Assembly (NCBI GenBank): GCA_016793485.1
Contig: JAEULZ010000016.1
Coordinates: 155,837-219,836, forward strand
Length of the DNA stretch: 64,000 bases
From: Mesorhizobium sp.
GTDB taxonomy: Bacteria > Pseudomonadota > Alphaproteobacteria > Rhizobiales > Rhizobiaceae
Direction of reading: 5' to 3'
The position numbers were made by a program, and so were the translations under genes. Positions 16,804 to 55,993 of the stretch are shown here, in pieces; the stretch's first letter is position 1, and each line of letters starts with the position of its first letter. Under the pieces are notes generated by a model, which did not search any database, was not told the DNA's origin, and saw only the letters and a list, made by a program, of their open reading frames with translations.

Positions 16804-16893
16804 GGAGAAGTGGCAGAGTGGTCGAATGCACCGCACTCGAAATGCGGCATGGGTGCAAGCCCATCGGGGGTTCGAATCCCTCCTTCTCCGCCA
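16804..16893 (+). tRNA. tRNA-Ser(CGA)
   Basis: GGAGAAG/CTTCTCC acceptor stem, CCGCA-CT-CGA-AA-TGCGG anticodon arm, long variable arm, GTTCGAATC T loop, encoded CCA; 90 nt. Confidence 0.97.
16880..16893 (+). repeat. att core copy 1 (tRNA 3' end)
   Basis: CTCCTTCTCCGCCA, identical at 38212-38225 and 52567-52580. Confidence 0.93.
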
Positions 16894-34256: not shown

Positions 34257-34922
34257 TCATCCACGCGCACTCGTATCGCGAACGATCCTGCTGCTCAGGA
34301 GTGCGCGGCTGACGTCGCCGATCGGTACAGGGGATATGGTAGATATAGATGTGCGTGCTTTTTTCACGCCATCAACATCGCCAAACGGCCCTTTATGGCG
34401 TGCATCTTTCACGCCATTGGGGTGCTTTTTGCACGCCATGCAGTCTGGAATGGCGTGCTTTTTGCACACGTATGGCGTGCTTTTTTCACGCCGCGTTTTG
34501 TTTTTCTCGGCTGCTGCGGGCTCCCAACTCTTGAACTCGTAGGTCGGCGTCAGGGAGCGCTCGGGGAAGTCGGCTGGCAGTTCGGTAAGACGCCAGGTTG
34601 TCGCGCGACCAGCGTTTTGGAAACGAACCTTCCAATTGAACGTGCCCTTCTGGATGGCAATGATAAAGCCACGATCCTGAAGTTCCTTGAACCCGACAAT
34701 GACAGGCCTGTTGGAGCAGCCGAGCAGCTCGGCCGCCTCACGATAGGACATCGAGATGTCACCGTTGTTCATTCCGGTGAACTTCGCCCGCAACTCGATG
34801 TAGAGCAGCCGGGCATAGGGACTGAGAGACCGCCACGCGTCGGTCTTGCGAATCCAGTGGAAGAGTTGCGTATAAGCGGGGCCGCCCTTCTTATTGCCAC
34901 GACGGTCCACGCGGCTCATCAC
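34257..34922 (-). CDS. winged-helix replication initiator-like protein
   Basis: LSPYARLLYIEL...NNGDISMSYREAAELLGCS...FKELQDRGFI; iteron-like repeats inside the 3' half. Confidence 0.7.
   Translation of the reverse strand: MMSRVDRRGNKKGGPAYTQLFHWIRKTDAWRSLSPYARLLYIELRAKFTGMNNGDISMSYREAAELLGCSNRPVIVGFKELQDRGFIIAIQKGTFNWKVRFQNAGRATTWRLTELPADFPERSLTPTYEFKSWEPAAAEKNKTRREKSTPYVCKKHAIPDCMACKKHPNGVKDARHKGPFGDVDGVKKARTSISTISPVPIGDVSRALLSSRIVRDTSARG
34351..34494. repeat. five palindromic iteron-like repeats inside rep gene
   Basis: consensus TGGCGTGC-TTTTT-(G/T)CACGCCA at ~34351, 34396, 34418, 34451, 34473. Confidence 0.8.
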
Positions 34923-36858: not shown

Positions 36859-38067
36859 CTATCCCTGCGGGTTCGCTGTTTTCTTCCTGAACTGTGTCAC
36901 GTTGCCGGCCTTCACGGCGCCGACGTAACCGGCCCACGCCGTCATCAATTTGCGGCGCTTCTCCAAGGCGGTCGCCCGCCGGTAAGCGTTCTCTGTGTCA
37001 TCGCCAACCTTGTGCGCAAGGGCGGCCTCCGCGACCTCCCGCGGAAATGAGGTTTCGTCGCCAGCCCAATCTCGGAAGCTGCTTCGAAAGCCGTGGACCG
37101 TGAAATCCACCTTCATGCGCCCCAAAAGATTTTCCATGGCCATGTTGGACAGCGGGCGTCCTTCCTTCTGGCCGGGAAACACCCAACCGTGCTTGTCGCG
37201 GACCTCGTGAAGCTCTCGCAGGATTGCCACGACGCGAGGGACAAGCGGGACTTGGTGTTCCTTGCCCGCCTTCATGCGCTTCGCAGGGATTACCCACAGC
37301 GCGGCGTCCAGATCGATTTCGGTCCAGCGCGCGCCCAGCACCTCCCCAGAGCGACATGCTGTCAGAATAAGAACCTCAAGGGCCTTCGCTGACATGGCTG
37401 CACGGTCAAGCCGCCCAACGAATGCCGGAACCTGTGTATACGGCATTGCCGCATGGTGCCCGCGCTGGAGCTTCTGACGGGGCGGGAGAACGTTCTTGAG
37501 ATGGCCGCGCCACACGGCAGGGTTTTCCCCGGTGCGCCAACCCTTCGTCTTTGCGTAGTTCAGAACGCGCTCCATGCGCCCGCGCAGCCTGGAGGCGGTT
37601 TCGTTCTTCTCATTCCAGATCGGCGTAAGAATGGACAGCACGTCGTCTGTCGTCACGAGCGAGACGCGGCGGTCGCGGATCGGGCTGCAATACTCTGTCA
37701 GGGTCATACGCCACTGGTTGCGGTGCTTATCGTTGCGCCACGACCCGCCCATGGATTCGAGAAACCTGTCAGCGCACTCACCAAAGGTCGGCTCCGCTTC
37801 CTTGGAGCGCTCGGCGATGGGGTCACGGCCGGCCTGTACCTCTGAACGACAATCCGCCGCCATAGTGCGCGCGGCCGACAGCGTGACGGCGGGATAGGAG
37901 CCCAAGCCCATTTCACGTGGAACACCGCCACGCGTCCAGAGAAAGACCCATGCCTTCGATCCGGACACGGAAACGTTGAGGTAAAGCCCGCCGCCATCGC
38001 CGTAGCGCCTGGGCTTCTTCACGCTCTTGACCTGCATGTCCGAAAGCTTGTTCAGAGGGCGGGCCAT
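36859..38067 (-). CDS. P4-type tyrosine integrase of element 1
   Basis: DGGGLYL arm-binding domain, LTACRSGE, HGFRSSFRDW, ALAH, AYRR. Confidence 0.96.
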   Translation of the reverse strand: MARPLNKLSDMQVKSVKKPRRYGDGGGLYLNVSVSGSKAWVFLWTRGGVPREMGLGSYPAVTLSAARTMAADCRSEVQAGRDPIAERSKEAEPTFGECADRFLESMGGSWRNDKHRNQWRMTLTEYCSPIRDRRVSLVTTDDVLSILTPIWNEKNETASRLRGRMERVLNYAKTKGWRTGENPAVWRGHLKNVLPPRQKLQRGHHAAMPYTQVPAFVGRLDRAAMSAKALEVLILTACRSGEVLGARWTEIDLDAALWVIPAKRMKAGKEHQVPLVPRVVAILRELHEVRDKHGWVFPGQKEGRPLSNMAMENLLGRMKVDFTVHGFRSSFRDWAGDETSFPREVAEAALAHKVGDDTENAYRRATALEKRRKLMTAWAGYVGAVKAGNVTQFRKKTANPQG

Positions 38068-38197: not shown

Positions 38198-38211
38198 GCT
38201 AGCTGGTCGGA

Positions 38212-38225
38212 CTCCTTCTCCGCCA
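38212..38225 (+). repeat. att core copy 2 (junction of elements 1 and 2)
   Basis: CTCCTTCTCCGCCA. Confidence 0.93.
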
Positions 38226-38360
38226 GAACCTTCCCCTATCCATTTGGAATCATTGCGAATTAAGGATAGGGGCGAATATTTACCCCACTTCTTATCCCAA
38301 ATCGGTTTTTGCAGGGTCCGGCCATCCCACACGGCCGACTCCTCATTAAAATTGTAATCG

Positions 38361-39560
38361 TCAGGCCGGCGTCACGCTTGCGCCCGACCGGGCAAGCCGG
38401 GCCAGCAAAACTACGAGCGCAACGTTGACCAGCGCCACGGCAAACAGGACGCCAAGCATAGCGCCTTCGCCATACCCGATCAGCACCGCGCCTATCGACG
38501 GGGCGGCGGCTTGCGCGATCTGGCTTGGCATTGCCAGCTTGCCCATGAGGGCGGCGTATCTTTGCGGGTCGAACAGCACGAGCGGAAGCGCGCCGCGCGC
38601 AATGGTGTGAATGCCGTTGCCAGCGCCGTACAGAATCAGCGCCAGCGCGGTCAGTGGCAAGCTGAACAGCAAAAGGCCCAAGCCCGATGCGAGCAGGATC
38701 ACCGACGCAAGCATGGTCCAGACGGGATGATGGCGGTTGCGACCGATGGCCATTTCGGCAACCCGTGCGCCGACCTGTGCGGGACCGATCAGCGCGCCGA
38801 GGGCGACGGCCGTTGCAAGGTCCAGCCCGCGCGCCTGTAGCACCGCAAGCAGATGGACCGAGACCATGGAGGCAATCAGCGCCGCCAGCGTCAGGACGAG
38901 CGCCAGCAATGCGAATGCCCGTCTTTCCCTGCCCGTCGTGGGCACTGTAGCGCGCGGCCGGTCGGTCGGCCGGTCAATCATTGGCCGGGGAACCGAAGGG
39001 ACCGCGAAGAGGTGAAGCGGCAGACAGATGAACAGATGAATCGCGGCATAGCAAAGACATGCGCCGCGCCAGCCGTAAGCCTCCACGAGATAGGCGCTAA
39101 GCGGCCAGCAAACCGTGCTTGCGAACCCGCCGAAGAGCGTCAGCGTGGTAATGGCGCTCCGGGCCTTCGCGCCATAGAGACGGCCCAAAGTCGAAAAGCC
39201 GGCGTCGTATAACCCGGCCGACATGCCCAAGCCCATGAGCAGCCAAGCGGACAGGAAGACGGGATATGTGCCCGCCACGGCCATGAGCGTCAGCGCCGAG
39301 GCAAGCAGGACCGAACTGGCGGACAGGACCGGCCGGCCTCCATGGCGCTGAATCAATCGGCCCGTGACCGTCGATGCTAGGCCGGCGACCAGAAGCCCGG
39401 CCGACAAGCCGCCGACCACCCATGGAAGCGGCCAACCGGTGTCCGCTGACGTTGGCCCCGCCAGCACGGCCGGGAGATAGTAGGATGATCCCCACGCCAA
39501 TATTTGCGTGGTGCCGAGCGCACCGATCAGGAGCCGCCGTTGCGACGGGGCTTCGCTCAT
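38361..39560 (-). CDS. MFS transporter in ars cluster (ArsK-like)
   Basis: ALGTTQILAWGSSYYL, YDAGFSTL, TLFGGFASTV; ~12 TM; start MSEAP at 39560. Confidence 0.8.
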   Translation of the reverse strand: MSEAPSQRRLLIGALGTTQILAWGSSYYLPAVLAGPTSADTGWPLPWVVGGLSAGLLVAGLASTVTGRLIQRHGGRPVLSASSVLLASALTLMAVAGTYPVFLSAWLLMGLGMSAGLYDAGFSTLGRLYGAKARSAITTLTLFGGFASTVCWPLSAYLVEAYGWRGACLCYAAIHLFICLPLHLFAVPSVPRPMIDRPTDRPRATVPTTGRERRAFALLALVLTLAALIASMVSVHLLAVLQARGLDLATAVALGALIGPAQVGARVAEMAIGRNRHHPVWTMLASVILLASGLGLLLFSLPLTALALILYGAGNGIHTIARGALPLVLFDPQRYAALMGKLAMPSQIAQAAAPSIGAVLIGYGEGAMLGVLFAVALVNVALVVLLARLARSGASVTPA

Positions 39561-40231
39561 ACAGCGCGTGTTGCCGGGCGCAATAACCAGCCGGCCGCGA
39601 TCAGCGCCAGAAGCGCCCCGGCCAGTTGCGCGATGACGAATGCCGGAACGTCGGTCGGACGGATGCCCGCGAACGTGTCGGTGAACGCCCTTGCGACCGT
39701 CACGGCCGGATTGGCGAAGGACGTGGACGAGGTGAACCAATATGCAGCGGTGATGTAGAGGCCGACCAGCCAAGCGACGTTGGGGCGCGCCACCCGGACG
39801 GCTATCAGGATCAGCGCGACGAGGCCGAAGGTTGCCACCCCTTCGGAGAACCATTGCGGCCAGCCGCTTCGCGCCGTCGTTCCCACTTCAAGGATTGGAA
39901 GGTCAAACATAGCGTGCGCCACCATGGTCCCGGCAAGCCCGCCAAGCACCTGAAAGGTGACGTAGCCGGCAAGCTCTCCCATGGGTAGCTCGCCGCGAAA
40001 CGCGAAGGCCAGCGACACGGCCGGATTGAAATGTGCGCCAGACAACGGCCCCAAGACCGAGATTAGAACGGCCAGCGCCGCGCCGGTCGCAATGGCGTTG
40101 CACAGGAGCGCCAATGCAACGTCATCGGTAAGCCGGTCGGCCATGATGCCGGAGCCGACCACGGCGGCGACAAGCAAGCCCGTGCCCGCGCTTTCCGCCG
40201 CCATCCGGCGCGACAAACTGAACGTGTCCAT
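39557..40231 (-). CDS. aquaglyceroporin (AqpS-like arsenite channel)
   Basis: SGAHFNPAV and SFANPAV NPA motifs; in ars operon. Confidence 0.9.
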   Translation of the reverse strand: MDTFSLSRRMAAESAGTGLLVAAVVGSGIMADRLTDDVALALLCNAIATGAALAVLISVLGPLSGAHFNPAVSLAFAFRGELPMGELAGYVTFQVLGGLAGTMVAHAMFDLPILEVGTTARSGWPQWFSEGVATFGLVALILIAVRVARPNVAWLVGLYITAAYWFTSSTSFANPAVTVARAFTDTFAGIRPTDVPAFVIAQLAGALLALIAAGWLLRPATRAV

Positions 40232-40758
40232 TATCCGGCTTTGGGCGTGGTCGCGGTGGTGCCTTCCAACTGCCCAATGCCGCGCAGCTTCGCGCCGAGC
40301 GCCATGCGGTCAATCGACGCCAGCGGCAAGGACAGGAAGGCGTCTATACGGCTCTTCATGTATCGGGCGGCGAGGCTGAAAGCCCGCTCCTTCTCAATGT
40401 CGGTGCCCTCCACGGCGGCGGGGTCTTCAATGCCCCAGTGCGCCGTCATGGGCTGGCCGGGCCACACCGGGCACGCCTCGCCGGCCGCGCTGTCGCAGAC
40501 GGTGAAAACGAAATCCATCACGGGCGCGCCGGGAACCGCGAACTCGTCCCATGCCTTGGAGCGGAAACCATCTGTCGGATAGTCCAGCGCGCCAAGCACT
40601 TTCAGCGCGAAGGGATTCACCTGTCCCTTGGGCTGGCTACCAGCCGAAAAGGACCGGAAGCGGCCGGCTCCGTCCTTGGCAAGAATGGACTCGGCCAGAA
40701 TGGAGCGGGCGGAATTGCCGGTGCATAAGAAAAGCACGTTGTAGGTACGGTCAGTCAT
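40231..40758 (-). CDS. arsC: arsenate reductase, LMW-PTP type
   Basis: VLFLCTGNSARS, VCDSAAGEACPVWPG, HWGIEDP; start MTDRTY at 40758. Confidence 0.93.
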   Translation of the reverse strand: MTDRTYNVLFLCTGNSARSILAESILAKDGAGRFRSFSAGSQPKGQVNPFALKVLGALDYPTDGFRSKAWDEFAVPGAPVMDFVFTVCDSAAGEACPVWPGQPMTAHWGIEDPAAVEGTDIEKERAFSLAARYMKSRIDAFLSLPLASIDRMALGAKLRGIGQLEGTTATTPKAG

Positions 40759-41194
40759 GGGAAGCACCATTGGTTTGACGGACGAGAAGAGAAGCTGACG
40801 ACGGACAAAGCGATGCGGCCTGTCTTGAGGCCAGGATTTCCGCTGGAGCCGTCGCGCGTTCGGTTTTGACGAAGCCGAGCCGCTGGAAAAAGCCGGCTGC
40901 GGAGGTTGTGAGGAGATAGACTTGGCGCACTCCGTCGCCCGCCAGACGGACCAACAGCGCCTCCGTGATGGCTTTTCCCGCCGCCTTGCGGCGTGCATGG
41001 GGCAGGACAACAATTGAGCGGAGGAGGGCGTTGTCCCCGTATCGCTCATAGCCGCCGAACCCGATGGTTTTGCCGTTGACGACAAAACGGAAAAAGACGC
41101 CGGGCGAATCGTCCAAATCGTCCACCGGAAGGTCAGCGCCCGCAAGCGCGGCCCTCATGTCCCCGGATGGTGATGGAAGCGCCTCCGCGATCAT
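40751..41194 (-). CDS. ArsN-family GNAT acetyltransferase
   Basis: ADLPVDDL, ALLRSIVV, YLLTTSAAGFF, QAASLCPSSA. Confidence 0.8.
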   Translation of the reverse strand: MIAEALPSPSGDMRAALAGADLPVDDLDDSPGVFFRFVVNGKTIGFGGYERYGDNALLRSIVVLPHARRKAAGKAITEALLVRLAGDGVRQVYLLTTSAAGFFQRLGFVKTERATAPAEILASRQAASLCPSSASLLVRQTNGASHD

Positions 41195-41535
41195 TGGAGG
41201 GCCTTTGGCGAACAGCATGGCGCGGAAGCGGCCGGCGCACAGATTTCCGGCCGACCGGCGCAACAATCCTCCATGAGGAAGCGGATAAGGCCGGTCAGCG
41301 AATCGAACTCGGCGGAATAGACGATGGAGCGGCTATCGCGGCGCGCGCTGACCAGCCCGGCGCGCTCAAGCTCCTTCAGGTGGAAACTGACGTTGGACGG
41401 CGACACCTCTACCTGTTCAGCGATAGCGCCAGCGGCCACGCCATCGGGGCCGGCCACGACAAGCAGCCGGAGGATGCGCAATCGCGTTTCCTGTGACAGA
41501 GCGCCGAAAGCGGTTAGGGCTTGACGTTCATCCAT
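41191..41535 (-). CDS. arsR: ArsR-family repressor
   Basis: ALSQETRLRILRLL, SFHLKELERAGLV, C-terminal EDCC...EIC. Confidence 0.93.
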   Translation of the reverse strand: MDERQALTAFGALSQETRLRILRLLVVAGPDGVAAGAIAEQVEVSPSNVSFHLKELERAGLVSARRDSRSIVYSAEFDSLTGLIRFLMEDCCAGRPEICAPAASAPCCSPKALQ

Positions 41536-41536
41536 G

Positions 41537-41554
41537 TTTCAATATTCCTTGAAA
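41537..41554. promoter_or_regulatory. probable ArsR operator
   Basis: TTTCAA-TATTCC-TTGAAA palindrome in the 42-bp gap between divergent arsR and next gene. Confidence 0.6.
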
Positions 41555-41577
41555 TATCGAAATGAGGATTAGCCGAC

Positions 41578-42093
41578 ATGCTCGCGACTGACAACAGCAA
41601 AATTGACGACGTGACGATTGGGCAATTGCTGACCGCCTTGGCTGCGCGTCCCGATGCCCGTCTCGTGTTCCATTACGATGGTCGGGCGGTGAAGCCCGGC
41701 TATCATGTCACGGAGGTGAAAGCCGGCCAGTTTGCAGCGCTGGACTGTGGCGCTAACCCGGAATCGTGGACGGAGATATTCATACAGCTTTGGGACGTGA
41801 ACGAAGGCGAGCGGACACACATGCCCGCTGGCAAGTTTGCATCGATCATACGCAAGGTGTCCGACCACGTGGCTTTGGACCCGTCAGCCAAACTGACGTT
41901 CGAGGTGAGCGACGGGGTAGCGCCCATGCAGCTACACCGGGCAAGCTCTCCGTCCATCGCAGGTGACGAGATACACGTTGATCTGTCTCCACGTCCTGCT
42001 AGCTGCAAGCCTCGTGACCGATGGTTGGTAGAGCAGGCCAAGGCCGATGCGTGCTGCGGCCCCTCCAATGCCAGCGCCAAGTGTTGCGCCTGA
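41578..42093 (+). CDS. ars-cluster-associated Cys-rich protein (DUF6428-like)
   Basis: PGYHVTEVK, LDCGANPESW, ASCKP, C-terminal CC...CC. Confidence 0.7.
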   Translation: MLATDNSKIDDVTIGQLLTALAARPDARLVFHYDGRAVKPGYHVTEVKAGQFAALDCGANPESWTEIFIQLWDVNEGERTHMPAGKFASIIRKVSDHVALDPSAKLTFEVSDGVAPMQLHRASSPSIAGDEIHVDLSPRPASCKPRDRWLVEQAKADACCGPSNASAKCCA

Positions 42094-42260
42094 TAGAAGG
42101 CATGGACTTGTTGAACATGAAGGCCCCACCGGCAAAGCGGAATGATTTTCTACAAAGCGATTGAAGCCGGGTGGCCTGTGAGGCGTTGAGTCGATGCGCT
42201 CGGCGGAACCTTGATCGTTAACGCGATTGCTAAAACTTTACGGACTTTTCGGCCGCGAGC

Positions 42261-42442
42261 GGGTCCTCCGGCCACAAAATTCGCAATACGGGGCGGCGAA
42301 GCGGCGGTGTGGCTCCAGCTACAAGGTTTTTATTCGGCCGACTCCCCGACCGCGCTCGGCGTTAACAATTCGGGCGCTCCGCGCATGACCGGAAACCATT
42401 TCGGCAACGAAATGAAATCGGTCGGTTTCAAGGTCGGAAACC
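42261..42442 (+). other. lambda-type cos site (cosQ, cosN, possible cosB boxes)
   Basis: GGGTCCT at 42261-42267, 23 nt, then GGGCGGCGAAGC at 42291-42302 preceded by TACG; CGGAAACC at 42390 and 42435, GGTTTC at 42424. Confidence 0.75.
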
Positions 42443-42562
42443 GGAATGGTTTTGCGCGCCGACCCGTCCCTTGGTGGTGCCCGTTAATTATCCCTCTTCG
42501 TTCGATCTGCGTTACGTTCGCCGTCAAGAGTACGATGCGCTGCGCAAGCGCTAGCCAAGCGC

Positions 42563-42744
42563 TGCGTAGCGTACTCTTATTCTTAAGGCACTCTCACCTA
42601 ACTCACGCAGACAAAAAGCCCGGAAATCCGCCATTTCGGGCATTTTGCGTGACGTTGGCAAAATCGCCCCAAAAACGTAACGCAAAGCCTGTTTGCGTGA
42701 GGTGCGTGAGGTTGTGCGTACCGTAAAATGGGCAACGTTACGCA
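42563..42744. repeat. TGCGT(G/A) iteron-like cluster, candidate origin
   Basis: TGCGTGAG at 42694, 42703 and inverted at 42602; TGCGTGAC 42646; TGCGTA 42563, 42715; inverted copies at ~42677 and 42737. Confidence 0.6.
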
Positions 42745-45020
42745 TCCCGAATGGTCTCCGCCTCGGTGTCCTCTTCGGTCTGGAAATCGGGATTGAGTGC
42801 CCACACGTCGATCTCGTTTCGCTGCGGAGTCTTCCATTTCACTTTGATGATGGACCCCTCGTTCTCAAACGCGGCAAGCCATCCTTCGGCCTGCTTTTCG
42901 GTAATGTCGAAACGCTGCGACACGGCCACGTTAAGGCGGGCTTCCCGTCTGCCCTTGGAGGACGCCTGCCACGGCACATACTTGCCGTCATCGCCCTCGC
43001 GCCCGTCATCGATCATGCGGAGGAATTGTTGGCGGTTAAGCCAGCGCTTCGGATCATAGAAGCCCTCGGCGCTGGCAAGGTCGCGCCATATCAAAGACGG
43101 GCGCACTTCGCCGTTGCCGACCTCAAAATCTACAAGCTCCATCCACCGACCGCCGCTCTTCTTTGAGTAGTTCTGTTTGGGGTCGGTGAAGAGGGCATAT
43201 TGCTCGCGCGGACGTGGCGGCTTCAAATCCTTGTATTCGGATTCGGTCATGCCGCTGATCGTGGCGGCTACGCGGCTGGCGTCCACCTTCGCGGACGCGC
43301 CACGGATGGACGCTTGGTCACCGCCGCTACCGCCCTTCTGGAAATGATCCACGGTCAGGATGGCGCAAGGGTGTCCATCGGTGAGCGAGCGGAGGATGGA
43401 ATAAAACTCCTCCATGTCGTCATTCTCCGATTCCTTGAATCCTGTGCTGCCCTTGATGACAGGGTCCACCACGACAACACGCACGTCCCGATTTTCGATG
43501 GCCCACCGGACACCGCGACCGAGCTTCGTAAGCGCGGTCTTTCCGGTCTTTATGTCCTTGGTGGCCAGACGGATGGTGCGCTCGCCCCAAGCCATGAAAC
43601 GGTCGCCAAGCTCCGCGCGGTCAATCCCCATGGCCTGACATGCGGCGGACACGCGGCGCTCAATCTCGGGAACATCGTCCTCGCCCGATATGACCAGCAC
43701 GCGAAGCGGCGTCGGTGGCGGCTCGAACCATAGGAACGGTTTTCCGCTGGCAATCATGGCCACCATGCCCCATGCGAAAAGGCTCTTGCCCGAGCCGCCC
43801 TTTCCGCCAAGCGTGGACACCTCATTCTCAAGAAGTATGCCCTCGCAAACCCACCGTGTCGGTGGGATGGAGGCAATGTCGCACTGGCCAATGGGCGTCC
43901 AGTTTTTCTCGAACCACGCGCCCCAATCAAACGGGCCGTCTTCGCCTGTAGGTTCGTCCTCCAGCCACTCCGGGTCAACCTCACCGAACTCGGCGTCCCG
44001 TTCCGCCTTTACGATGGCAAGGGCGTTGCGGACCTGACGCTCGGCATATGCAAGCTGATCGGCGGGCGACGAATGCTTGTCAGGATCGAGCACAGATTCC
44101 GAAATACCAAATTCCTGGCCTAGCAGAATCCACAGAATCTGTTCGGGCACTACGCCGTGCCGGACGAGATTGCAGACGCCGTCGAACAACCATGCGGAGC
44201 GCGAGTCGTCGCCCTCTTTCGACTCTGGCAAGCGACCATCCATGACGATGGTAAGGGTACGCTCGTCCAGCCCGAGCGCCTCCACGTCGCATTCCTCCGG
44301 CGCTCCAAACTCAATGTCCACTTTGGCCTTTGCGGGCGCGACGACGTGGCCGAACTCGTCGGACGCATATGCATCGCCATTGCTCGAAAGAAGGCGTGTC
44401 GGAACGATGGTACGCCCGCGCTTACGCTTACGCGCATCGGGATGATTGATCGTGCCGGGCAAACGGAGGAGGTGGTCAACATTCGCGCATTGCGGTTCAC
44501 CCCCCGGATACTGACCGGCAAGCCAACGGTTCGCGCCCTCGACCTTCTCGATATTCTCCGGCGTGGCCGGAAGCGGTTCGGCAAGACGCCATAGAGCTTG
44601 GAGACCTCCGCCAGAGTCGACCAGCAACGTCGGTGGTGTCAGGGCGTCAAGCTGATCGCGCACCATGTCCTTGCGCCGGGCAAGCGATATGTCGCCAAGG
44701 CTGTCGGCCTTGTCCACGTCGATATCCGCATGAAGGAACTCGAAGACCGGAACATCGCCCTTGTGGGCACGTCCAGCTTTGCCGGTCGGCTTCGGAGCGG
44801 GATTGGGCACATAGTGCAGATTGGCCTTGCCTGCCCTCTTCTCCATCCATGCACGGGCTTTCGCCGCGTCGGTGAATGTGGCCGAGGTCACAGGTCCGTC
44901 CGGTGTGATCGCGGTCAGGTTCCACGGTCCCTTGGGACGGAGGGCTTTTAGAAAAGCGATGGCCGTATCAAGGTCGGCCTTTGGAGGATTCACGTTCATG
45001 TTCATGTCAAAGTTTCCCAT
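42738..45020 (-). CDS. primase-helicase fusion (RepB-type primase plus AAA_25/RepA-like helicase)
   Basis: HADIDVD, VDSGGGLQALW, LLRLPGTIN; Walker A GGKGGSGKS, ISGEDD, VVVVDP, TVDHFQK. Confidence 0.88.
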   Translation of the reverse strand: MGNFDMNMNVNPPKADLDTAIAFLKALRPKGPWNLTAITPDGPVTSATFTDAAKARAWMEKRAGKANLHYVPNPAPKPTGKAGRAHKGDVPVFEFLHADIDVDKADSLGDISLARRKDMVRDQLDALTPPTLLVDSGGGLQALWRLAEPLPATPENIEKVEGANRWLAGQYPGGEPQCANVDHLLRLPGTINHPDARKRKRGRTIVPTRLLSSNGDAYASDEFGHVVAPAKAKVDIEFGAPEECDVEALGLDERTLTIVMDGRLPESKEGDDSRSAWLFDGVCNLVRHGVVPEQILWILLGQEFGISESVLDPDKHSSPADQLAYAERQVRNALAIVKAERDAEFGEVDPEWLEDEPTGEDGPFDWGAWFEKNWTPIGQCDIASIPPTRWVCEGILLENEVSTLGGKGGSGKSLFAWGMVAMIASGKPFLWFEPPPTPLRVLVISGEDDVPEIERRVSAACQAMGIDRAELGDRFMAWGERTIRLATKDIKTGKTALTKLGRGVRWAIENRDVRVVVVDPVIKGSTGFKESENDDMEEFYSILRSLTDGHPCAILTVDHFQKGGSGGDQASIRGASAKVDASRVAATISGMTESEYKDLKPPRPREQYALFTDPKQNYSKKSGGRWMELVDFEVGNGEVRPSLIWRDLASAEGFYDPKRWLNRQQFLRMIDDGREGDDGKYVPWQASSKGRREARLNVAVSQRFDITEKQAEGWLAAFENEGSIIKVKWKTPQRNEIDVWALNPDFQTEEDTEAETIRDA

Positions 45021-47794: not shown

Positions 47795-48013
47795 TCAGAT
47801 TTCCTTGGTTCGGGTTGGAAGATTGCGCAGATACGCGTCGATTTCCGATGCCCGCCAAGCAATGATGCGCGCGCCGACTCTGACCGGCGCGGGGAAGCCC
47901 GACTTGTCGTCTTCCATGCGCCGACGAATTGTCGATTCGCTGACCGCAACGCGCCTGACTACTTCGTCAATCCGTAGCAGGCGCTCGTGGTTGTCTGTCG
48001 TGTTTGCGTTCAT
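47795..48013 (-). CDS. alpA: AlpA-family regulator
   Basis: LLRIDEVVRRVAVSESTIRRRM...FPAPVRVGARIIAWRASEIDAYL. Confidence 0.9.
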   Translation of the reverse strand: MNANTTDNHERLLRIDEVVRRVAVSESTIRRRMEDDKSGFPAPVRVGARIIAWRASEIDAYLRNLPTRTKEI

Positions 48014-48122: not shown

Positions 48123-49601
48123 CTACAGCTTGGCCTCTATTGCCGCATAGGCCAAACGCCTGACCGCTGCAATCCAGTCAGTCCGGCGCGTCCAAGTGCT
48201 GACGGTCTCCGGCGTCACGCCGGCCTGTTTTCGGATGCGTTCGACGCGCTCCGAAAGCTTTTTGCGCGCGGCGAGCTTGACGCTCTTCCGGCGCTCGGCG
48301 TGCTTGATGTTCTCCGGGCGTTTGTCCCATTCGCTGTCACCCGGCATATCGTCCTTGTGACAGTCCGCTATCCACCCGACGAAGGACTGTAGCGCCTGCT
48401 TGTGCCATTGCGGCGATAGCGGGTCGGGCGCGGGGTCTTTGAACTCGGAGGCGAAGTGGGTAGCTACGCCAAGAAGCCATTGCGCCTCGGCGTCCACCTC
48501 ACCTTGGCGCGCCCATGTCGCAACGTCGTCCGCGATGATACGCGCATGGTGGGCGAGCGCCCGGCGATATGCGGTCAGGTTTTCGATTCCCGAAGTCGTC
48601 GGAGTCTTCGTTTCGCGCTCCACCACTTCGTGGTGCAATCCGCCCTTGCCATCGTCCAGCATCAACACGCGGGCAACGGACCAGACAACGCCACGCGGAA
48701 CCGGGAGGCCGTGCTGATCGAACCACAAGACCACGTCGAACAGGTTGCATCGTAGCGGGCGCGTCGGGTCATCCTTGGCGCTCTTCGCCTTTACGTAGGT
48801 GGTGGCGCGTAGGCGTTCGACCTCGTCGGCAATCGCGAGCGCGTGGGCTATCACTGACCGGATGGCATTCTCGCGGTCGGCCTCCCAACGGTCCCGCTCT
48901 ATCTCGCGGGCGTCTTCCTTATCTTCGTGGGCGTCAACGGCTTCGCGGTGCCCGGTCCAATCTCCCGCCGCGCGTGCCTTCGCAATGGCGTCCAGTTCAC
49001 GCCGCAACGCCCTAGCGTCCACCACGGGCGGAGGAGCCGCCAGCGCCGCCGTGGCGTCGGGGAACGGGTCGGCCGGGTCCTCCAGCTTCAAGTCATTCTG
49101 AATCGTCCGCGCGGACACGCCAAGCGCATGGGCGATGGTGGCCACGTCGGCCGTGGCGCGCATAGCCTTGGCGCGCGGTGCGCGCAAAACGGTGTCCGCG
49201 TGCTTGCTGATCGACATTGCGCGGCCGAGCGCCCGCATGACCTCATACGGTTGCCGCATGTCGTTCGCGGCGTGGAAGGCGAAAAGGCGATAGGCTTCCA
49301 CCGGCAAGGCAAGTGCGCGTTGCGGCAACGCCATGACCTCCAGCGCCGACATGCACGCGGCTCCGGGGCGAAGCGTGTTGCGCGGCCTGTCCGTGTCCAG
49401 CGCGGCGGCGCGGCGCTCTTCCACATGGGCGGCGTTCAGCTTCGCAAAGGCTTCACGCTTGCCGGCGTGGTAGTCGTGAAGGAAAGCGAGTTCACCGTCC
49501 GCATAGAGCGCGCGGCTAGTCGTGTCACGGCCACGCCCGGCGCGGCGATGCTGCAACGCTTCAAGCTCTTCGTCCGTGAGACTGTTTTCCGTCAAGTTCA
49601 T
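48123..49601 (-). CDS. large hypothetical protein with HTH and coiled coil
   Basis: 492 aa; VATIAHALGVSARTIQNDL followed by charged helical segment. Confidence 0.7.
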   Translation of the reverse strand: MNLTENSLTDEELEALQHRRAGRGRDTTSRALYADGELAFLHDYHAGKREAFAKLNAAHVEERRAAALDTDRPRNTLRPGAACMSALEVMALPQRALALPVEAYRLFAFHAANDMRQPYEVMRALGRAMSISKHADTVLRAPRAKAMRATADVATIAHALGVSARTIQNDLKLEDPADPFPDATAALAAPPPVVDARALRRELDAIAKARAAGDWTGHREAVDAHEDKEDAREIERDRWEADRENAIRSVIAHALAIADEVERLRATTYVKAKSAKDDPTRPLRCNLFDVVLWFDQHGLPVPRGVVWSVARVLMLDDGKGGLHHEVVERETKTPTTSGIENLTAYRRALAHHARIIADDVATWARQGEVDAEAQWLLGVATHFASEFKDPAPDPLSPQWHKQALQSFVGWIADCHKDDMPGDSEWDKRPENIKHAERRKSVKLAARKKLSERVERIRKQAGVTPETVSTWTRRTDWIAAVRRLAYAAIEAKL

Positions 49602-49662: not shown

Positions 49663-49899
49663 ATGGTCCAGCGCGTTGCGGGGGCGAATGTCCGGCGTTG
49701 GGTTTTACAGGCGGGCCGGGCCAATGAGGCGCTGGACTGTAGGGTGTACGCCTATGCGGCGTTGCACGGCATGTACCATACGCGCCGGCTCAAGCTGGAG
49801 CGTCAGGCCCAAGCGCTCGCGGAGCTTATCGAACTGGCGCGCGCCAAGGTGAAGCCGGAACCGGTGCGCGGGCGGCGGATACGGGGGCGGATGCTATGA
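49663..49899 (+). pseudogene. C-terminal remnant of lambda gpA-type terminase large subunit
   Basis: W...ANEALDCRVYAYAAL nuclease-domain motif; no upstream ATPase region, no SD. Confidence 0.8.
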
Positions 49900-49973
49900 C
49901 TCTATTGCTTGGCGTGACAGTCGTTCTTTTCGCGCTGGCCGTGGTGTTGCTTTTGAGCCTCCTTTGGGAGTGA
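49896..49973 (+). CDS. 25-aa hydrophobic micropeptide (below ORF-track cutoff)
   Basis: MTLLLGVTVVLFALAVVLLLSLLWE; ATG overlaps the terL-remnant TGA. Confidence 0.4.
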   Translation: MTLLLGVTVVLFALAVVLLLSLLWE

Positions 49974-50103
49974 CTAAGGGAAAGAGTTCTGTCGGAAATC
50001 CGACAAAACTAAAGCAAGCGCGGTTTTCGACCGAAAAGCCCTTTGCTAAAGATTGGACCGATGGCGAAAAATGCCCGTCTCCGCAAAAGACTAGGAGACA
50101 GCA

Positions 50104-50322
50104 ATGGCCACGGCCGACGAACTGAACGCCCAATTGACTGCCCTCAAGAAGGCCCGCGCCTCGGGCGCATTGGTCATCCGGCACGGAGACACGCAAGTGA
50201 CCTACCGTTCCATTGCGGAACTCCAGAAGGCCATTGACGCAATCCAGAATGAGCTTGACGCGCTGACCGGCAAGCGGAAGCGCGGCCCGCGCTACGTCAG
50301 ACAGGACAGGAGGGGGCTTTGA
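50104..50322 (+). CDS. gpW-like head completion protein
   Basis: LTALKKARASGALVIRHGDTQVTYRSIAELQKAI; SD AGGAG; between terL and portal remnants. Confidence 0.8.
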   Translation: MATADELNAQLTALKKARASGALVIRHGDTQVTYRSIAELQKAIDAIQNELDALTGKRKRGPRYVRQDRRGL

Positions 50323-50699
50323 ACAGCTTCGTGACGCGCACCGCGCAACGGGTCTTCGCCCGGTTCTTCGGCCCGGCCGGACAGAACGAGCGCTTTGAGG
50401 GTGGCAACCCGGCCGGCCGTCGTCTGGCCTCTATCCCCTCCAATTCACTGGCCATCAACACCCTGATTCGTACCTACGGCAAAACGGTGCTTGGCCGGAG
50501 CCGTTACCTTTGCACGAACAACCCCTATGCGGTGTCCGCCAAGGAACAGTGGATAGCGTCCTTGGCCGGCTCCAGTTTCGCCGGATTTCCGGCGAAACTC
50601 CCGACAACGAAAAGGGGCCAACGGACCCCCTTCCTGAAACGATGCGGAGCGCGGTCTATTCGGTCGGCGCGGCCCCCTCCACCTTGGGCACGGTGGTGA
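50319..50699 (+). pseudogene. 5' fragment of lambda-family portal gene
   Basis: FEGG...GRRL...GRSRYLCTNNPYA; similarity ends ~50573, after which the frame runs into the integrase 3' end. Confidence 0.75.
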
Positions 50700-51915
50700 C
50701 GTAGGTTGTCCATGCGTCCATGTATGTGCGTCGGCCTTCCGGGTCGGGGTCGTCGTGGTGATATGCCCTTTCGGTCTTGGTGCCGATCACATGGGCGAGC
50801 GATTCCTCCGCAAGGTCCCATGGCATTTTCGCTTCCTTGCGTGCCCATATGCGGAAAGCGGACCTGAAACCGTGGGGCGTGATGTGCCCGAGCTTCATGC
50901 GCCGTAGCAGCATGGCAAAGGCCATGCCGGACAGCGGGCGATCTTTCTTCTGACCGGGGAATACGTAGTCGGAAAGCTTGGCGGCGCTACGGTCCCGAAC
51001 GATCTGCACCGCACGGGGCGAAAGCGGGACTATGTGTTGCCGGTTGGCTTTCATCCTGTGCGCTGGAATAGTCCAGAGTGCCTTGTCCAAATCGAACTCG
51101 GACCACGTCGCCCCGAAGACCTCACCGGAGCGGGAGGCCGTGAGGATAAGGAACTCCAGCGCGCGCGCCGCCATTGCCTCCGCGCCCTGTAGGCGCTTCA
51201 CGAAAGCCGGAACGTCTTTGTATTCCATCGCCGCATGGTGTTGAGCTTCCGGGCGCTTCCCGAGTGCGTTTTTCAGTCCCGACCACTTGGCCGGGTTGTC
51301 ACCTTTGCGCCATTCCTGTGTGGTCGCATAGGCGAGGACGTTTTCGATGCGCCCTTGAATCCGGGAAGCGGTCTCGGCCTTCGAGTCCCAAATGGGCATG
51401 AGAATGGCAAGCACGTCCTTCTGACTAACGTCCGATACGCGCTTGGCGCGTATGCTGGAGCAGTACGCGTCCCCGAGCGTCATCTTCCATTGCGCCCGGT
51501 GCTTTTCGTTCCGCCACTCCTTGGCAATGGGCGACTCGGTCAGGAACGAGTCGACCGCCTCCGCGAACGTGGGAATAGCCTTGTCCTTGTCGCGCTCGGC
51601 TATGGGGTCCAGCCCCTCCGCAATCGCGGTGCGCGCGGCGGATGCTTTCTCACGGGCAGACGCAAGGCTGATAGCCGGATAGGGGCCGAGACCCATTTCG
51701 CGGCGCTTGCCACCGTTGGGCACCCACATGAACACCCAATTCTTGGAACCGGGCTTGCGAGGGGCCTTCAGGTCGTCCGTGGGCGCTTTGCTGGAGGGCC
51801 AAACGACTAGGTACAGCCCGCCGCCGTCCGAATGCCTGCCCGGCCCTTTGGACTGGACGGCCTTGTCCGTCAGCTTGTTAAGGGTGTGCGGACCCGCCTT
51901 CTTGTGCTTGCCCAT
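50656..51915 (-). CDS. P4-type tyrosine integrase of element 2
   Basis: DGGGLYL, EMGLGPYP, LTASRSGE, HGFRSAFR, SLAH, AYHH; many blocks shared with integrase 1. Confidence 0.96.
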   Translation of the reverse strand: MGKHKKAGPHTLNKLTDKAVQSKGPGRHSDGGGLYLVVWPSSKAPTDDLKAPRKPGSKNWVFMWVPNGGKRREMGLGPYPAISLASAREKASAARTAIAEGLDPIAERDKDKAIPTFAEAVDSFLTESPIAKEWRNEKHRAQWKMTLGDAYCSSIRAKRVSDVSQKDVLAILMPIWDSKAETASRIQGRIENVLAYATTQEWRKGDNPAKWSGLKNALGKRPEAQHHAAMEYKDVPAFVKRLQGAEAMAARALEFLILTASRSGEVFGATWSEFDLDKALWTIPAHRMKANRQHIVPLSPRAVQIVRDRSAAKLSDYVFPGQKKDRPLSGMAFAMLLRRMKLGHITPHGFRSAFRIWARKEAKMPWDLAEESLAHVIGTKTERAYHHDDPDPEGRRTYMDAWTTYVTTVPKVEGAAPTE

Positions 51916-52553: not shown

Positions 52554-52566
52554 TTAGTGTGAAGGA

Positions 52567-52580
52567 CTCCTTCTCCGCCA
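52567..52580 (+). repeat. att core copy 3 (outer boundary)
   Basis: CTCCTTCTCCGCCA. Confidence 0.93.
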
Positions 52581-52706
52581 GTCTTCTCGCCCTTCCCGCC
52601 TTAGCTTTGTCCAGTTTTCTTGCCTCCGGTTGAGGATCCGCGTTTGGAGGCAACGGAGAGTTGGGTCCGTCACGTGGCGCGCCTGCTCCGATGGCTTCCG
52701 GTGCAT

Positions 52707-53289: not shown

Positions 53290-55524
53290 TCAATTGAGTG
53301 TGATGCTGAGTCCCGCGCCGCCGCCAACCGAACCGTCGGCCATGGTCGCGGCCGCATTGGCTCTGACTCGCCCGCCCTCACTTGTGTAGCCTGCGCCGAA
53401 AGCCGTAGCGCTTTGCCCGCGCCACAGACCGCCGCCAACGCCGATGCTGAATTTGCCGGGCGTGTCGTCGTAGCGTATCGACGATGCGGCCAACCCGATC
53501 GCGGCGGCCAGCCTGGCTTCGTCGCGGACGCCTGAAATCTCGCCCGACAATTGCGATATGCGCATGTCGGTGTATTCGTTGGCGATGTTGATGACTTCCT
53601 CGTTCGCATTGAACAGGAGCGTGTCCGAATAGGTGTTTGCCTGGATCAGCACATCGGCCAGCCCACCCTCCAGCTGGGCGAGGTTAACTGCGTCGGTTTG
53701 GTCGACGCCGGCGGCGACGTTCTTGAGGACGACCGGCGCATTTGGGTCGCCGCCAAGCAGCGTGACCGTGTTGGTCTTGTTGCCCGACAGGTCGAGGTCG
53801 TATTGAACTGCATTGTCCGAAAGTTCTGCTAGCGCGACGTTGGTGTCGTGAAGCTGCGAGCCGTTGACAGCGTCCGTCGAGGTTTCGTCCAGCAGGGCAG
53901 GCCGCAGGTTGGTGATGGTGGTTCCCGAGGCACCCTCCAGCGTTATGGTATCCTTGGCCGCTCCCTCGATGCCATCATAGCGAACGGCCCTGTCGGTGAC
54001 TTCGCCGATCGACGTGTCGATGTTGTCAATGCGCGTGTTGATATTGGTGACTTCGCTATCGACGGCTTCGAATGCGTTGTAGACAGTGCCGTAGTCGCTG
54101 CCCTGGATCGTGTAGGTCGGGCCGTTCACGGTTCCGTCGGAACTGACCGTGGCGCCGCCGCCGAGATGATCTGCCACGCTTTGTGAGGCGCCATGGAGCT
54201 GCGAACCGTTCACTGCGTCGCCTGACGTCGCACTGATTTCGCCGTCTGCGAGGTTTCTGATCGTCGTGCCGTTCGAGCCTTCGAGCGTGATTGTGTCTTT
54301 GGCGTCGCCCTCAGCGCCATCATAACGTACAGCGCGATCACTGACTTCATTCACGGCGCTATCGATGTTGTCGATGCGAGTGTTGACGTTTGTAATCTCG
54401 CCATCGACCGCGGAGAATGCACTGGAAATCGTCGTGTGGTTGCCGCCCTGTATTACATAGGTCGGGCCTGTGACGGTGCCGTCGACATTGACGGTTCCGC
54501 CGCCAAGATGGTTGACGACGCTCTGCGAGACGCCGAAGAGCTGCGAGCCATTGACGGCTTCATCCGAGGTCGCATTGACCACACCGTCCGCGAGATTTGC
54601 GATCGTCGTGCCTGCGGGCCCCTCGAGTGTGATGTGGTCCTTTGCTACCGCATCGTAGCGGATGGACCATTGCGCCAGCCCCTCGAGCTGGCTGACGTTG
54701 ACAGCGTCTGTGGAGGCCGAGCCTGCGGCGACATTGGTGACGCGGCGTTGGATCGAGGCATTGCCGACAGAAAATTCTCCGGCCGCAGTCGATCCGGCAA
54801 TCGCACCGAGCCCCGGATTGTAGGCAGGGTTCGAGAGGATCGCCGTGGTTTGCGATCCAGCACCGATGGCAACGCTGTTGGCGGCGGTAACGCCGGCTCC
54901 TGCTCCTATGGCAATGGACCCCGTAGCATTGGCGCCGACGGTTGCGCCCGTGCCCAAGGCAATTGAACTCGTTGCGCTGGCATCGGTTTCTGCGTTGTTG
55001 CCGATCGCAATTGAATTGATCTCGCCCGCGTCAGCCTCCTGCCCGTTCGCGCCGAGGCCCGTGACCTGGTTGCCGCCGATCGACACACCCTTCTCAGTGT
55101 CGAGCGTTACGCCATCGGCCGTCATGATGCAGTCGTCGGTCGGGCCGACAATGACCCCGTTAACGTCGAGCACCGAAAGCGTGATCGGGTCTCCTGCCGC
55201 AGCCGTCGCGAGCAACCCGGCCACGTCCACCGAAGCAGCCGGCGGTGGATTGAAACCCAACACTCCAAGCGCGCCCGAAATCAGTGGAACGTTGCCGATG
55301 ACGTTGACCGCCGCGAGAGTGCTGTTCAGCACACCCTGGATTGGCACCACCGCGCCGGTGACGACCGGACTCATGATGTCGGTCACCACAGAGGGGCGGA
55401 GGCTGACCCCTGAGCAGGCGCTCACAACGGATTGGGCAGACGCCACGTTGGCCTTCAAGACCAGCGCAATGCCCATTGTAAGAGCCAAAGGAAGAATTCT
55501 TTTGCTAGCCATTGCTTGCAACAT
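53290..55524 (-). CDS. trimeric autotransporter adhesin (YadA-like)
   Basis: SIAIG head repeats, STDAVNVSQL/DAVNGSQL neck repeats, C-terminal anchor ending GAGLSITLN; SD GGAGG before 55524. Confidence 0.92.
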   Translation of the reverse strand: MLQAMASKRILPLALTMGIALVLKANVASAQSVVSACSGVSLRPSVVTDIMSPVVTGAVVPIQGVLNSTLAAVNVIGNVPLISGALGVLGFNPPPAASVDVAGLLATAAAGDPITLSVLDVNGVIVGPTDDCIMTADGVTLDTEKGVSIGGNQVTGLGANGQEADAGEINSIAIGNNAETDASATSSIALGTGATVGANATGSIAIGAGAGVTAANSVAIGAGSQTTAILSNPAYNPGLGAIAGSTAAGEFSVGNASIQRRVTNVAAGSASTDAVNVSQLEGLAQWSIRYDAVAKDHITLEGPAGTTIANLADGVVNATSDEAVNGSQLFGVSQSVVNHLGGGTVNVDGTVTGPTYVIQGGNHTTISSAFSAVDGEITNVNTRIDNIDSAVNEVSDRAVRYDGAEGDAKDTITLEGSNGTTIRNLADGEISATSGDAVNGSQLHGASQSVADHLGGGATVSSDGTVNGPTYTIQGSDYGTVYNAFEAVDSEVTNINTRIDNIDTSIGEVTDRAVRYDGIEGAAKDTITLEGASGTTITNLRPALLDETSTDAVNGSQLHDTNVALAELSDNAVQYDLDLSGNKTNTVTLLGGDPNAPVVLKNVAAGVDQTDAVNLAQLEGGLADVLIQANTYSDTLLFNANEEVINIANEYTDMRISQLSGEISGVRDEARLAAAIGLAASSIRYDDTPGKFSIGVGGGLWRGQSATAFGAGYTSEGGRVRANAAATMADGSVGGGAGLSITLN

Positions 55525-55993
55525 CATTACCTCCATACGTTAGCTATATCATTGCAAGAGATGGTCAACAATTGGTAACTGAACAATACGTCAACACGAC
55601 TGACTTATGGCCATCGGCGAGAAGTAGAATTTATTCAAGTATACAATCTGCCGGTGCGATTAACATTTGTTATCGTGGATCGAAGAACATCTTCATGCTT
55701 CAAAATAACGGTCGCGCAAATTGTCAACTTGATCTGCGGAGTCCGCAACGGCGGTGTTGTTCGTGACGAGGGTCGCCGGTTCTGTGTCATGGAACAGTTG
55801 AAGGAACCTCGCGCCGGAAGACCCCGGTTCCGAGAACGACAGAACAGGATCCGCTGGCCTCCACTTGTGGAGAGGGCTAATCCGGCCAAAGAATAGTCAG
55901 GACGTCGCGCCTGTGGATTTCGCCGCCGCCAGGAGCGGTATTGGCAGACTCCGCTCTGCCTCCGGGTCCCAGTACAGATCGCAGTACAGATCC

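Follow-up and report, generated by a model that had tools for sequence, protein, structure and literature searches.

The 64,000-nucleotide stretch of DNA analyzed here (the window), from a Mesorhizobium-like genome, contains an intergenic motif that, on sequence comparison, is very probably homologous to functional phage cos sites. With less assurance, the evidence favors the reading that positions 42255-42307 are a genuine lambda-type cos core, and that the island that surrounds them, termed E2, is a helper-packaged satellite. E2 is probably a cos-type, PICI-like satellite. It carries the packaging signal of a phage without encoding the enzyme that acts on it, and it therefore probably depends on a hijacked helper phage for its spread. 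The elements at and around the motif are as follows.

42255-42297, + strand: block homologous to the cos of the uncultivated phage L112, by local alignment
42261-42267, + strand: cosQ-like heptamer GGGTCCT, identical to lambda cosQ
42268-42290, + strand: spacer between cosQ and cosN, 23 nt ending in ATACG, equal in length to that of lambda
42291-42302, + strand: predicted 12-nt cohesive end GGGCGGCGAAGC (cosN), with the nicks placed by homology
42322-42334, - strand: A+T-rich IHF-like site AATAAAAACCTTG with 1 mismatch, at +32 to +44 from the predicted nick
42390-42454, + strand: two CGGAAACC boxes and a GGTTTC box, the R-sites of the original prediction

The elements that had been named in the original prediction (GGGTCCT, ATACG, GGGCGGCGAAGC and GGCGG) were all borne out in sequence and position. 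GGCGG lies directly 3′ of the predicted cohesive end at 42291-42302, and the full cosN region of E2 extends from about 42286 to 42307. The prediction had described a 23-nt spacer and then ATACG; the spacing is correct, but ATACG is not separate from the spacer, as the 23 nt include it. The lambda sequence was re-read from NC_001416, where the right end reads ...ACGGGTCCT followed by 23 nt ending in TTACG, then GGGCGGCGACCT and CGCGG, and the left end begins GGGCGGCGACCTCGCGG. The comparison was upheld against this record: E2 and lambda are identical at 17 of the 22 positions from -5 to +17 and at 7/7 positions of cosQ, and the distance from cosQ to the nick is equal. Positions 1-9 of the E2 cosN are those of lambda, while positions 10-12 differ (AGC in E2, CCT in lambda). 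cosQ is highly conserved, as is the left half of cosN (GGGCGG...), whereas base pairs 7-12 are variable (PMC4669245). A CG precedes the left nick in E2, and the right flank, where CG is the conserved dinucleotide, is GG in E2 and GC in the phages L003 and L005. Two-fold symmetry around cosN, counted from the sequence, is 6/16 in E2 versus 10/16 in lambda. The right flank and the lower symmetry count against a cos function in E2; true phage sites of the same cos subtype as E2 deviate likewise in flank CG and in symmetry.

The original prediction had held that the motif should occur upstream of terminase genes in related phages, and this was seen in alphaproteobacterial phages, where it stands before terS and a gpA-type terL. 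The pattern GGGTCCT-N23-GGGCGGCGAAGC was found in three IMG/VR contigs, which belong to two phages with a TerL identity of only 44%, and all 12 nucleotides of the E2 cosN are the same as in the putative cosN of phages L003/L004/L065 and L005. In both phages a DUF1441/Nu1-like terS is located 83-100 nt downstream of the predicted nick, and it is followed on its 3′ side by a gpA-type terL (PF05876 and PF20454) and a lambda-family portal gene; the L003 phage is also present as a prophage within a 627-kb contig. A wider family of cos sites was recovered with a relaxed pattern and by following TerL homologues. The same architecture is present in L013, L017, L067, L068, Sinorhizobium phage phi3LM21 and a Mesorhizobium captivum prophage, and in the uncultivated alphaproteobacterial phages and the M. 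captivum prophage it is located 80-250 nt upstream of terS and gpA-type terL. Across this family cosQ is invariant upstream of terS/gpA-terL, the spacing is 22-23 nt and cosN is variable; the spacing is exactly 23 nt in lambda, L003, L005, L013, L017, L066, L068 and L112. In Rhodobacter phage RcCronus, for which a 13-nt 5′ overhang was defined experimentally (PMC8601537), GGGTCCT stands 19 nt upstream of that overhang, GGTTCCTTCGCGC.

The closest cos sequence to that of E2 is found in L112, a phage of 61% G+C in which terS, a gpA terL and a lambda-family portal gene lie downstream of cos. The alignment spans 43 nt, reading GCGAGCGGGTCCTCC--GGCCACAAAATTCGCAATACGGGGCGGC in the window and GCGAGCGGGTCCTCCCTGGCCTGAAAA-TCG-TATACGGGGCGGC in L112, and its indels (+2, -1, -1) sum to zero, so that the 23-nt spacing is kept. 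The local alignment score is 50, compared to 21.6±2.4 for shuffled sequences (0/1000 reach 50) and to 20.0±2.7, with a maximum of 28, for the 59 other loci that meet the same search pattern. Outside the search pattern, a further 23 positions match between E2 and L112, which is an 11-sd outlier among the pattern-matched controls. The assignment of the window site to true phage cos sites is made because of this alignment and because the architecture precedes terS/terL in phages. The TerL relatives of L112 belong to prophages of Maricaulis, Oceanicaulis and Glycocaulis (Maricaulales), not of Mesorhizobium, and the L112 proteins show no relation to the gpA′ fragment of E2.

The simplest competing account is that a G+C-rich genome happens to hold GGGTCCT and GGGCGGCGA 23 nt apart, for reasons unrelated to packaging. 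Large databases do yield such patterns. A scan of 596 Gb of reference genomes, a collection that does not include the host genome, gave 33 matches to the 19-nt pattern (cosQ, N23, GGGCGGCGAAGC); all of the matches were unrelated, coding or due to chance, with none near a terminase gene or E2 genes, which corresponds to a chance rate of about 5e-11 per base. In two other pattern searches the spurious fraction was 11/18 and about 45/60, and many other famous motifs could have been recognized in place of this one. Position weight matrices (PWMs) built from nine phage cos sites also fail to single out the window site or to separate it from simulated sequence: with all columns it scores 11.3 versus a simulated maximum of 6.4±3.3, and with the "informative" columns 8.6 versus 12.0±2.6. 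The matrices do not pick the site because the E2 spacer deviates from the phage spacers and is over-penalized; the PWM results were therefore set aside, and reliance was placed on exact-pattern statistics and on the L112 alignment. The window has a single match to the 16-nt pattern GGGTCCT-N23-GGGCGGCGA, which was derived from lambda, against about 2e-4 exact matches expected per window (analytic, from base composition); no match with at most 1 mismatch occurred in 100 dinucleotide shuffles of the window, and 0.18 matches are expected when up to 2 mismatches are allowed. Since these counts, the outlying similarity to L112 outside the search pattern, and the intergenic position of the site in a mobile element holding gpA, gpW and portal fragments all stand against a coincidence, we consider chance to be extremely improbable. 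Other searches returned little. A blastn search of the cos region against 50,697 phage records gave noise only, the scan of metagenome contigs with the 19-nt pattern returned the L003 prophage as its sole match, and patterns from the E2 right flank, CGGGGCGGCGAAGCGGCGG and GGGCGGCNNAGC-N11-14-CAGCTAC, gave chance matches only.

The motif is located in the second of two tandem islands. Housekeeping proteins group at 90% identity or more with those of Mesorhizobium sp. VNQ89 / M. quangtriensis. The window has a tRNA-Ser(CGA) gene at 16804-16893, and exact copies of its 3′ end, CTCCTTCTCCGCCA, are present at 38212-38225 and 52567-52580; these copies delimit islands E1 (21.3 kb) and E2 (14,355 bp), the latter being integrated at tRNA-Ser. 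Genes of E2 are mostly on the minus strand, and its layout is as follows.

38209-38226, + strand: attL, 18-nt repeat GGACTCCTTCTCCGCCAG, which contains the tRNA-Ser 3′ end
38361-42093: cargo consisting of an MFS transporter, an LMWP/ArsC-like phosphatase, ArsR and DUF6428
42094-42496: non-coding "cos module" of 403 bp between the ars cargo and the origin
about 42500-42745: iteron-like origin with TGCGTGAG/CTCACGCA and AACGTAACGCA repeats
42738-45005, - strand: primase-helicase with an N-terminal RepB_primase domain and AAA_25
47795-48013, - strand: AlpA-family regulator (PF05930, E 2e-10)
48123-49601, - strand: 492-aa ORFan p492, with a weak HTH and a weak match to the C-terminus of Mu Gp27
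49663-50699, + strand: lambda-like head-gene remnant gpA′-gpW-portal′
49663-49899, + strand: gpA nuclease C-terminal remnant (PF20454, E 4e-7)
50104-50322, + strand: intact gpW-like gene, 72 aa (own gpW HMM, E 5.7e-10)
50319-50699, + strand: portal N-terminal fragment (PF05136, E 7e-4)
50656-51915, - strand: tyrosine integrase
52564-52581, + strand: attR, the same 18-nt repeat GGACTCCTTCTCCGCCAG; 14,355 bp from repeat to repeat

E2 thus holds a site-specific integrase with flanking att repeats, alpA, and a primase with its own origin, and its size falls within the roughly 10-15 kb taken as the yardstick for a Gram-negative PICI. The context that had been predicted for the motif (a primase, an origin, a gpA remnant in the orientation of cos, and a 14.4-kb unit) holds on re-annotation. 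A 327-aa protein and four small proteins are encoded between the primase and alpA regions, and two small ORFs adjoin the integrase gene. The ORFan p492 has one weak relative only among 1.84 billion representative proteins. The three phage pieces, namely the truncated gpA′ and portal′ and the gpW-like gene, look like inert debris; the gpW-like product shares 32% identity with W of the M. captivum prophage. Beyond these pieces, E2 has no genes for a terminase, a capsid or a tail.

The position of the motif permits another account, in which 42094-42496 is a replication or regulation segment, consisting of a protein site that flanks the origin or of terminators for the convergent DUF6428 and primase genes, and its likeness to cos is incidental. 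The segment does adjoin the iteron origin and lies between convergent genes, and terminator-like hairpins are present at 42308-42323 and at 42422-42444, the latter being followed by a T-run. This account is nevertheless improbable, as the origin module is kept in relatives that do not have the cos segment, the specific homology is shared with phage cos sites that precede terminase genes and not with origins, and the segment matches no Rfam family. Across the region, Rfam returned only a sub-threshold rliI match, which lies in the origin region.

The original prediction had also proposed that the CGGAAACC and GGTTTC boxes downstream of cosN could be R-sites of a cosB, and this part was not supported. 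The CGGAAACC boxes are located at 42390-42397 and 42435-42442 and the GGTTTC box at 42425-42430. Two occurrences of the 8-mer in 667 nt are no more than chance allows, the boxes are not conserved in L069 (a related island) or L112, and two of them make up the hairpin at 42422-42444. A cosB was taken to consist of R sites that bind TerS, optionally together with an IHF site, at 50-170 bp to the right of cosN and adjoining terS, and no recognizable one was found to the right of the E2 cosN. In terms of IHF, the window has 14 matches to the site with 1 mismatch versus 15.7 expected, and only the position of the listed one, at +32 to +44, is suggestive. The sequence directly downstream of cos is taken up by the origin and by the primase 3′ end. 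Neither an Rpp-like gene nor any + strand ORF that matches a family was found there, and no TerS-like protein is encoded anywhere in the window. For p144, a 144-aa candidate Rpp/TerS, the PDB sequence search was empty and the AF2 model was of low confidence, with a pLDDT of 53.

Relatives of E2 that share its integrase and/or primase were compared for the presence of the site. The primase identities to E2 are 62% for L056, 46% for L057 and 43% for L058. L056 has the same ACTCACGC iterons downstream of its primase gene, and one of the E2 relatives carries a Mob-type gene; a cos-like site is absent from all three. A backbone relative in metagenome X4, 90-97% identical, ceases to align left of 42497, which places the cos module within a variable cargo zone. 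In a further island, L069 (primase 53% identical), GGGTCCT-ctccggcctataggatcaacgtc-GGGCGGCACAGC occurs with the N23 spacing in an intergenic position 1 kb past the primase gene. Across the 57 kb of relatives scanned, only about 3e-3 occurrences of an exact cosQ with N23 and GGGCGGC would be expected; the local alignment of L069 to E2 is not significant by itself. L069 is suggestive, from its sequence, of a second cos-bearing primase island. It has the same cos subtype as E2 (GGGTCCTC..CCGGCC..N..GGGCGGC) at a different position and on the opposite strand relative to the primase gene. E2 has no accessory proteins in common with L069, L056 or L057 beyond the integrase and primase, and the presence of cos is only partly a conserved trait of this island family. 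It is a tentative idea, and one to which we assign a rather low probability, that the cos core is a small, independently captured cassette that turns alphaproteobacterial int-primase islands into satellites. In that case targeting would be unlike that by Rpp, possibly through p492 or a cosB-independent entry, and the cosQ-N23-cosN grammar would be ancient and class-spanning among gpA terminases.

The same observations can be read in another way, namely that the site is a genuine phage cos left behind by recombination with a lambda-like prophage, and that E2 is a mosaic in decay, or an island with another mode of transfer (for example conjugative mobilization), and does not use cos. The truncated head-gene fragment on the same strand, which shows that phage DNA can be carried in E2 with no role, is consistent with such an origin, as are the absence of cos from L056, L057 and L058, the Mob-type gene that one relative has instead, the situation of cos in the variable cargo region, and the failure to find a cosB, an rpp gene or a helper. 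Several features of E2 argue against it. Only a non-coding cos region of about 400 bp has been kept; no terS, terL or NusG remnants flank cos, and 42094-42496 has no Pfam or Rfam match. A distance of 7.4 kb, which takes in the entire satellite core, separates the cos site from gpA′, and L069 has the same cos subtype at another position and in another orientation. Furthermore, the spacer differs from that of L112 by indels that compensate one another, yet cosQ, the spacing and the left cosN half are all intact, which is a signature of constraint and not of drift. A compatible terminase would also cut even a relic with these features. On these grounds we regard a relic as unlikely, although it is the rival explanation to which the most weight is given, and the preferred reading is still that of a cos core in a helper-packaged satellite.

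The original prediction had suggested a search of the host genome and its relatives for prophages with the same cosQ-cosN. Across the collections, and across the metagenomes in which E2 is present, no helper prophage with an E2-type cos turned up. The environments of the L003 and L005 phages are other than that of E2. No contigs at least 80% identical to the gpA′-W-portal′ remnant of E2 were present in runs X1-X4, and a search for the donor phage by means of gpW gave one uninformative locus.

Under the preferred reading, a lambda-like helper phage with a gpA terminase would infect the cell or be induced, and would trigger the excision of E2 by Int and AlpA. E2 would then replicate from its own iteron origin by means of the primase-helicase, giving rise to concatemers. 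The gpA-type TerL of the helper would nick the E2 cosN, with a 12-nt 5′ overhang at 42291-42302 as the probable product, and cosQ would let the translocating terminase recognize and cut the terminal cos. About three copies of E2 (43.07 kb) would fill a helper head of 41-47 kb; three copies per head are expected because E2 has no capsid-size genes. For comparison, L156, a near-twin of L112, is on a contig of 45.3 kb.

Satellites that hijack phage cos packaging have been established experimentally mainly in enterobacteria, Pasteurella and staphylococci, and to our knowledge none has been demonstrated so far in the bacterial class of E2. If the proposed reading is true, gene transfer by cos satellites would extend to the Hyphomicrobiales, the rhizobia-type bacteria of soil and bioreactors, with arsenic resistance as cargo. 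The conservation of the cosQ heptamer and of its distance from the nick in alphaproteobacterial gpA-terminase phages also aids in locating the genome ends of uncultivated phages, and E2 supplies a concrete 400-bp fragment with exact predicted termini.

In comparison with phages, E2 has in common with the lambda cos the cosQ heptamer, the 23-nt distance, positions 1-9 of cosN and the CG to the left of the nick. An A+T-rich tract lies just 3′ of cosN in lambda, L112 and E2 alike. E2 differs from lambda in having neither an R3-I1-R2-R1 cosB nor Nu1/A genes downstream, and in having an alphaproteobacterial host. With L112/L156 (IMG/VR 3300032373_000086 and 3300032253_000004) it shares GCGAGCGGGTCCTCC, GGCC, AAAAT, CG and ATACG/GGGCGGC; unlike E2, L112 has TTTGC in the right half of cosN and TTGAC repeats in its cosB region. 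RcCronus, phi3LM21 and the M. captivum prophage have gpA-type TerL proteins that are 41-47% identical to that of L003, with GGGTCCT upstream of their ends or of terS. Unlike E2, each of them is a complete phage or prophage and encodes a terminase; in RcCronus the overhang is 13 nt long and begins 19 nt after cosQ, and the cosN of the M. captivum prophage (GGGACAGCGAGG) and that of phi3LM21 both differ from that of E2.

Among satellites, P4 (helper P2) resembles E2 in being integrative and in having int, alpA-type regulation, a large primase-helicase and a helper-type cos, and it uses helper capsids. P4 uses the 19-nt cos of the P2 type, and its sid, psu and delta make small capsids. Pfam and PHROGs searches of the E2 proteins returned no sid, psu or delta, and the cos of E2 is not of the P2 type but lambda-type, so a P4-like satellite was rejected. 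A capsid-forming PICI was likewise rejected, as E2 has no capsid gene or terS and, of the genes expected, retains no more than the N-terminal part of a portal gene together with a gpW-like gene.

The closest resemblance is to the E. coli PICIs EcCICFT073 and PICI-A (PMC6092414, PMC6739421, PMC9026076), which are known from experiment, whereas E2 is described here from its sequence. The E. coli PICIs depend on Rpp, a TerS mimic that is encoded just downstream of cos (PMC9026076), and E2 has no rpp beside its cos. Its replication protein is of a different type (RepB_primase and AAA_25), it has one cos where the E. coli PICIs have two, it carries arsenic-resistance cargo, and its host belongs to another class. 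Published cos-PICIs keep cosQ and cosN without the cosB of the helper and are packaged in full-size heads by cos skipping (PMC9026076, PMC6092414); in the case of EcCICFT073, three copies of the island are contained in a full-size capsid and the terminase skips two cos sites (PMC6092414). E2 is like these islands in that it has int, alpA and a primase module but no terminase, in that its cosQ and cosN resemble those of a helper while the helper cosB is missing, and in that it lacks capsid-size genes, so that multimers in full-size heads are expected. At 14.36 kb, E2 has roughly a third of the length of a phage genome of 41-47 kb.

The cosQ heptamer of lambda, GGGTCCT(TCC), is kept 19-23 nt upstream of experimentally defined or putative cohesive ends in alphaproteobacterial phages that carry the lambda-type large terminase gpA. 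This conservation was seen in the phages RcCronus (loci L061/L062) and phi3LM21 (L063) and in a Mesorhizobium captivum prophage (L066), and the cosN sequence differs among the three despite the conserved cosQ. The conserved cosQ is an aid for predicting the genome ends of uncultivated phages. A comparison of two such phages, L156 and L112, the latter with the cos closest to that of island E2, showed that their small terminase subunits are 98.9% identical, while their cosN sequences (GGGCGGCTTTGC in L156 vs GGGCAGCTTAGC in L112) are mismatched at positions 5 and 10. Even the "constrained" left half of cosN is thus able to vary in the L156/L112 clade.

Within E2, a remnant of phage head genes is wedged between an ORFan and the integrase:

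48123-49601, minus strand: p492, an ORFan of 492 aa
49663-50699, plus strand: truncated gpA C-terminus, intact gpW-like gene and portal N-terminus

The reading frames of the remnant remain open, and the gpW-like protein is 32% identical to the W protein of the M. captivum prophage. Among 1.84 billion representative proteins, p492 has one weak relative (E 1e-5), and its only domain matches, to an HTH and to the Mu Gp27 C-terminus, are both below threshold. The p492 protein may have a function specific to E2.

E2 lies beside a second island, E1, and is followed on its right by an adhesin gene:

16894-38225: E1, 21.3 kb, forming a tandem pair with E2 at one tRNA-Ser
36859-38067: E1's own integrase
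53290-55536, minus strand: YadA-type trimeric autotransporter adhesin, directly right of the attR of E2

E1 has the look of a defence island, possibly one of phage ancestry. It encodes a PD-(D/E)XK nuclease, an Abi_2 protein, an N6_N4 methylase-Mrr fusion, an HNH endonuclease and a ClpP-like SDH protease. A phage-tail-lysozyme domain is present in another of its proteins, of 604 aa. A palindromic 18-mer, GCGTGCTTTTTTCACGCC, occurs five times within E1 (34353-34492, spaced by 22-45 nt); these copies could be operators or iterons.

The adhesin gene has internal repeats of ~343 nt. Bioreactor metagenome assemblies have contig breaks inside the E2 primase gene (44568-44580) and just past attR (52591-52603); the latter, seen in assembled contigs alone, could result from heterogeneous island occupancy.

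A 19-nt sequence, CGGCCGCGAGCGGGTCCTC, is common to positions 42250-42268 and three related viral contigs (L152, L153, L157). Neither a cosN nor a terminase was found near the match in these contigs, and the match is probably a coincidental similarity within coding sequence. The pattern scan also yielded, incidentally, four IMG/VR contigs of 10-13.5 kb (L095, L097, L103, L126) that carry an integrase at one end and contain a lambda-type cos but lack gpA. The L103 region is annotated in E. coli chromosomes with terS and a ClpP/capsid fusion protein. These four contigs are probably capsid-forming PICI-like satellites.
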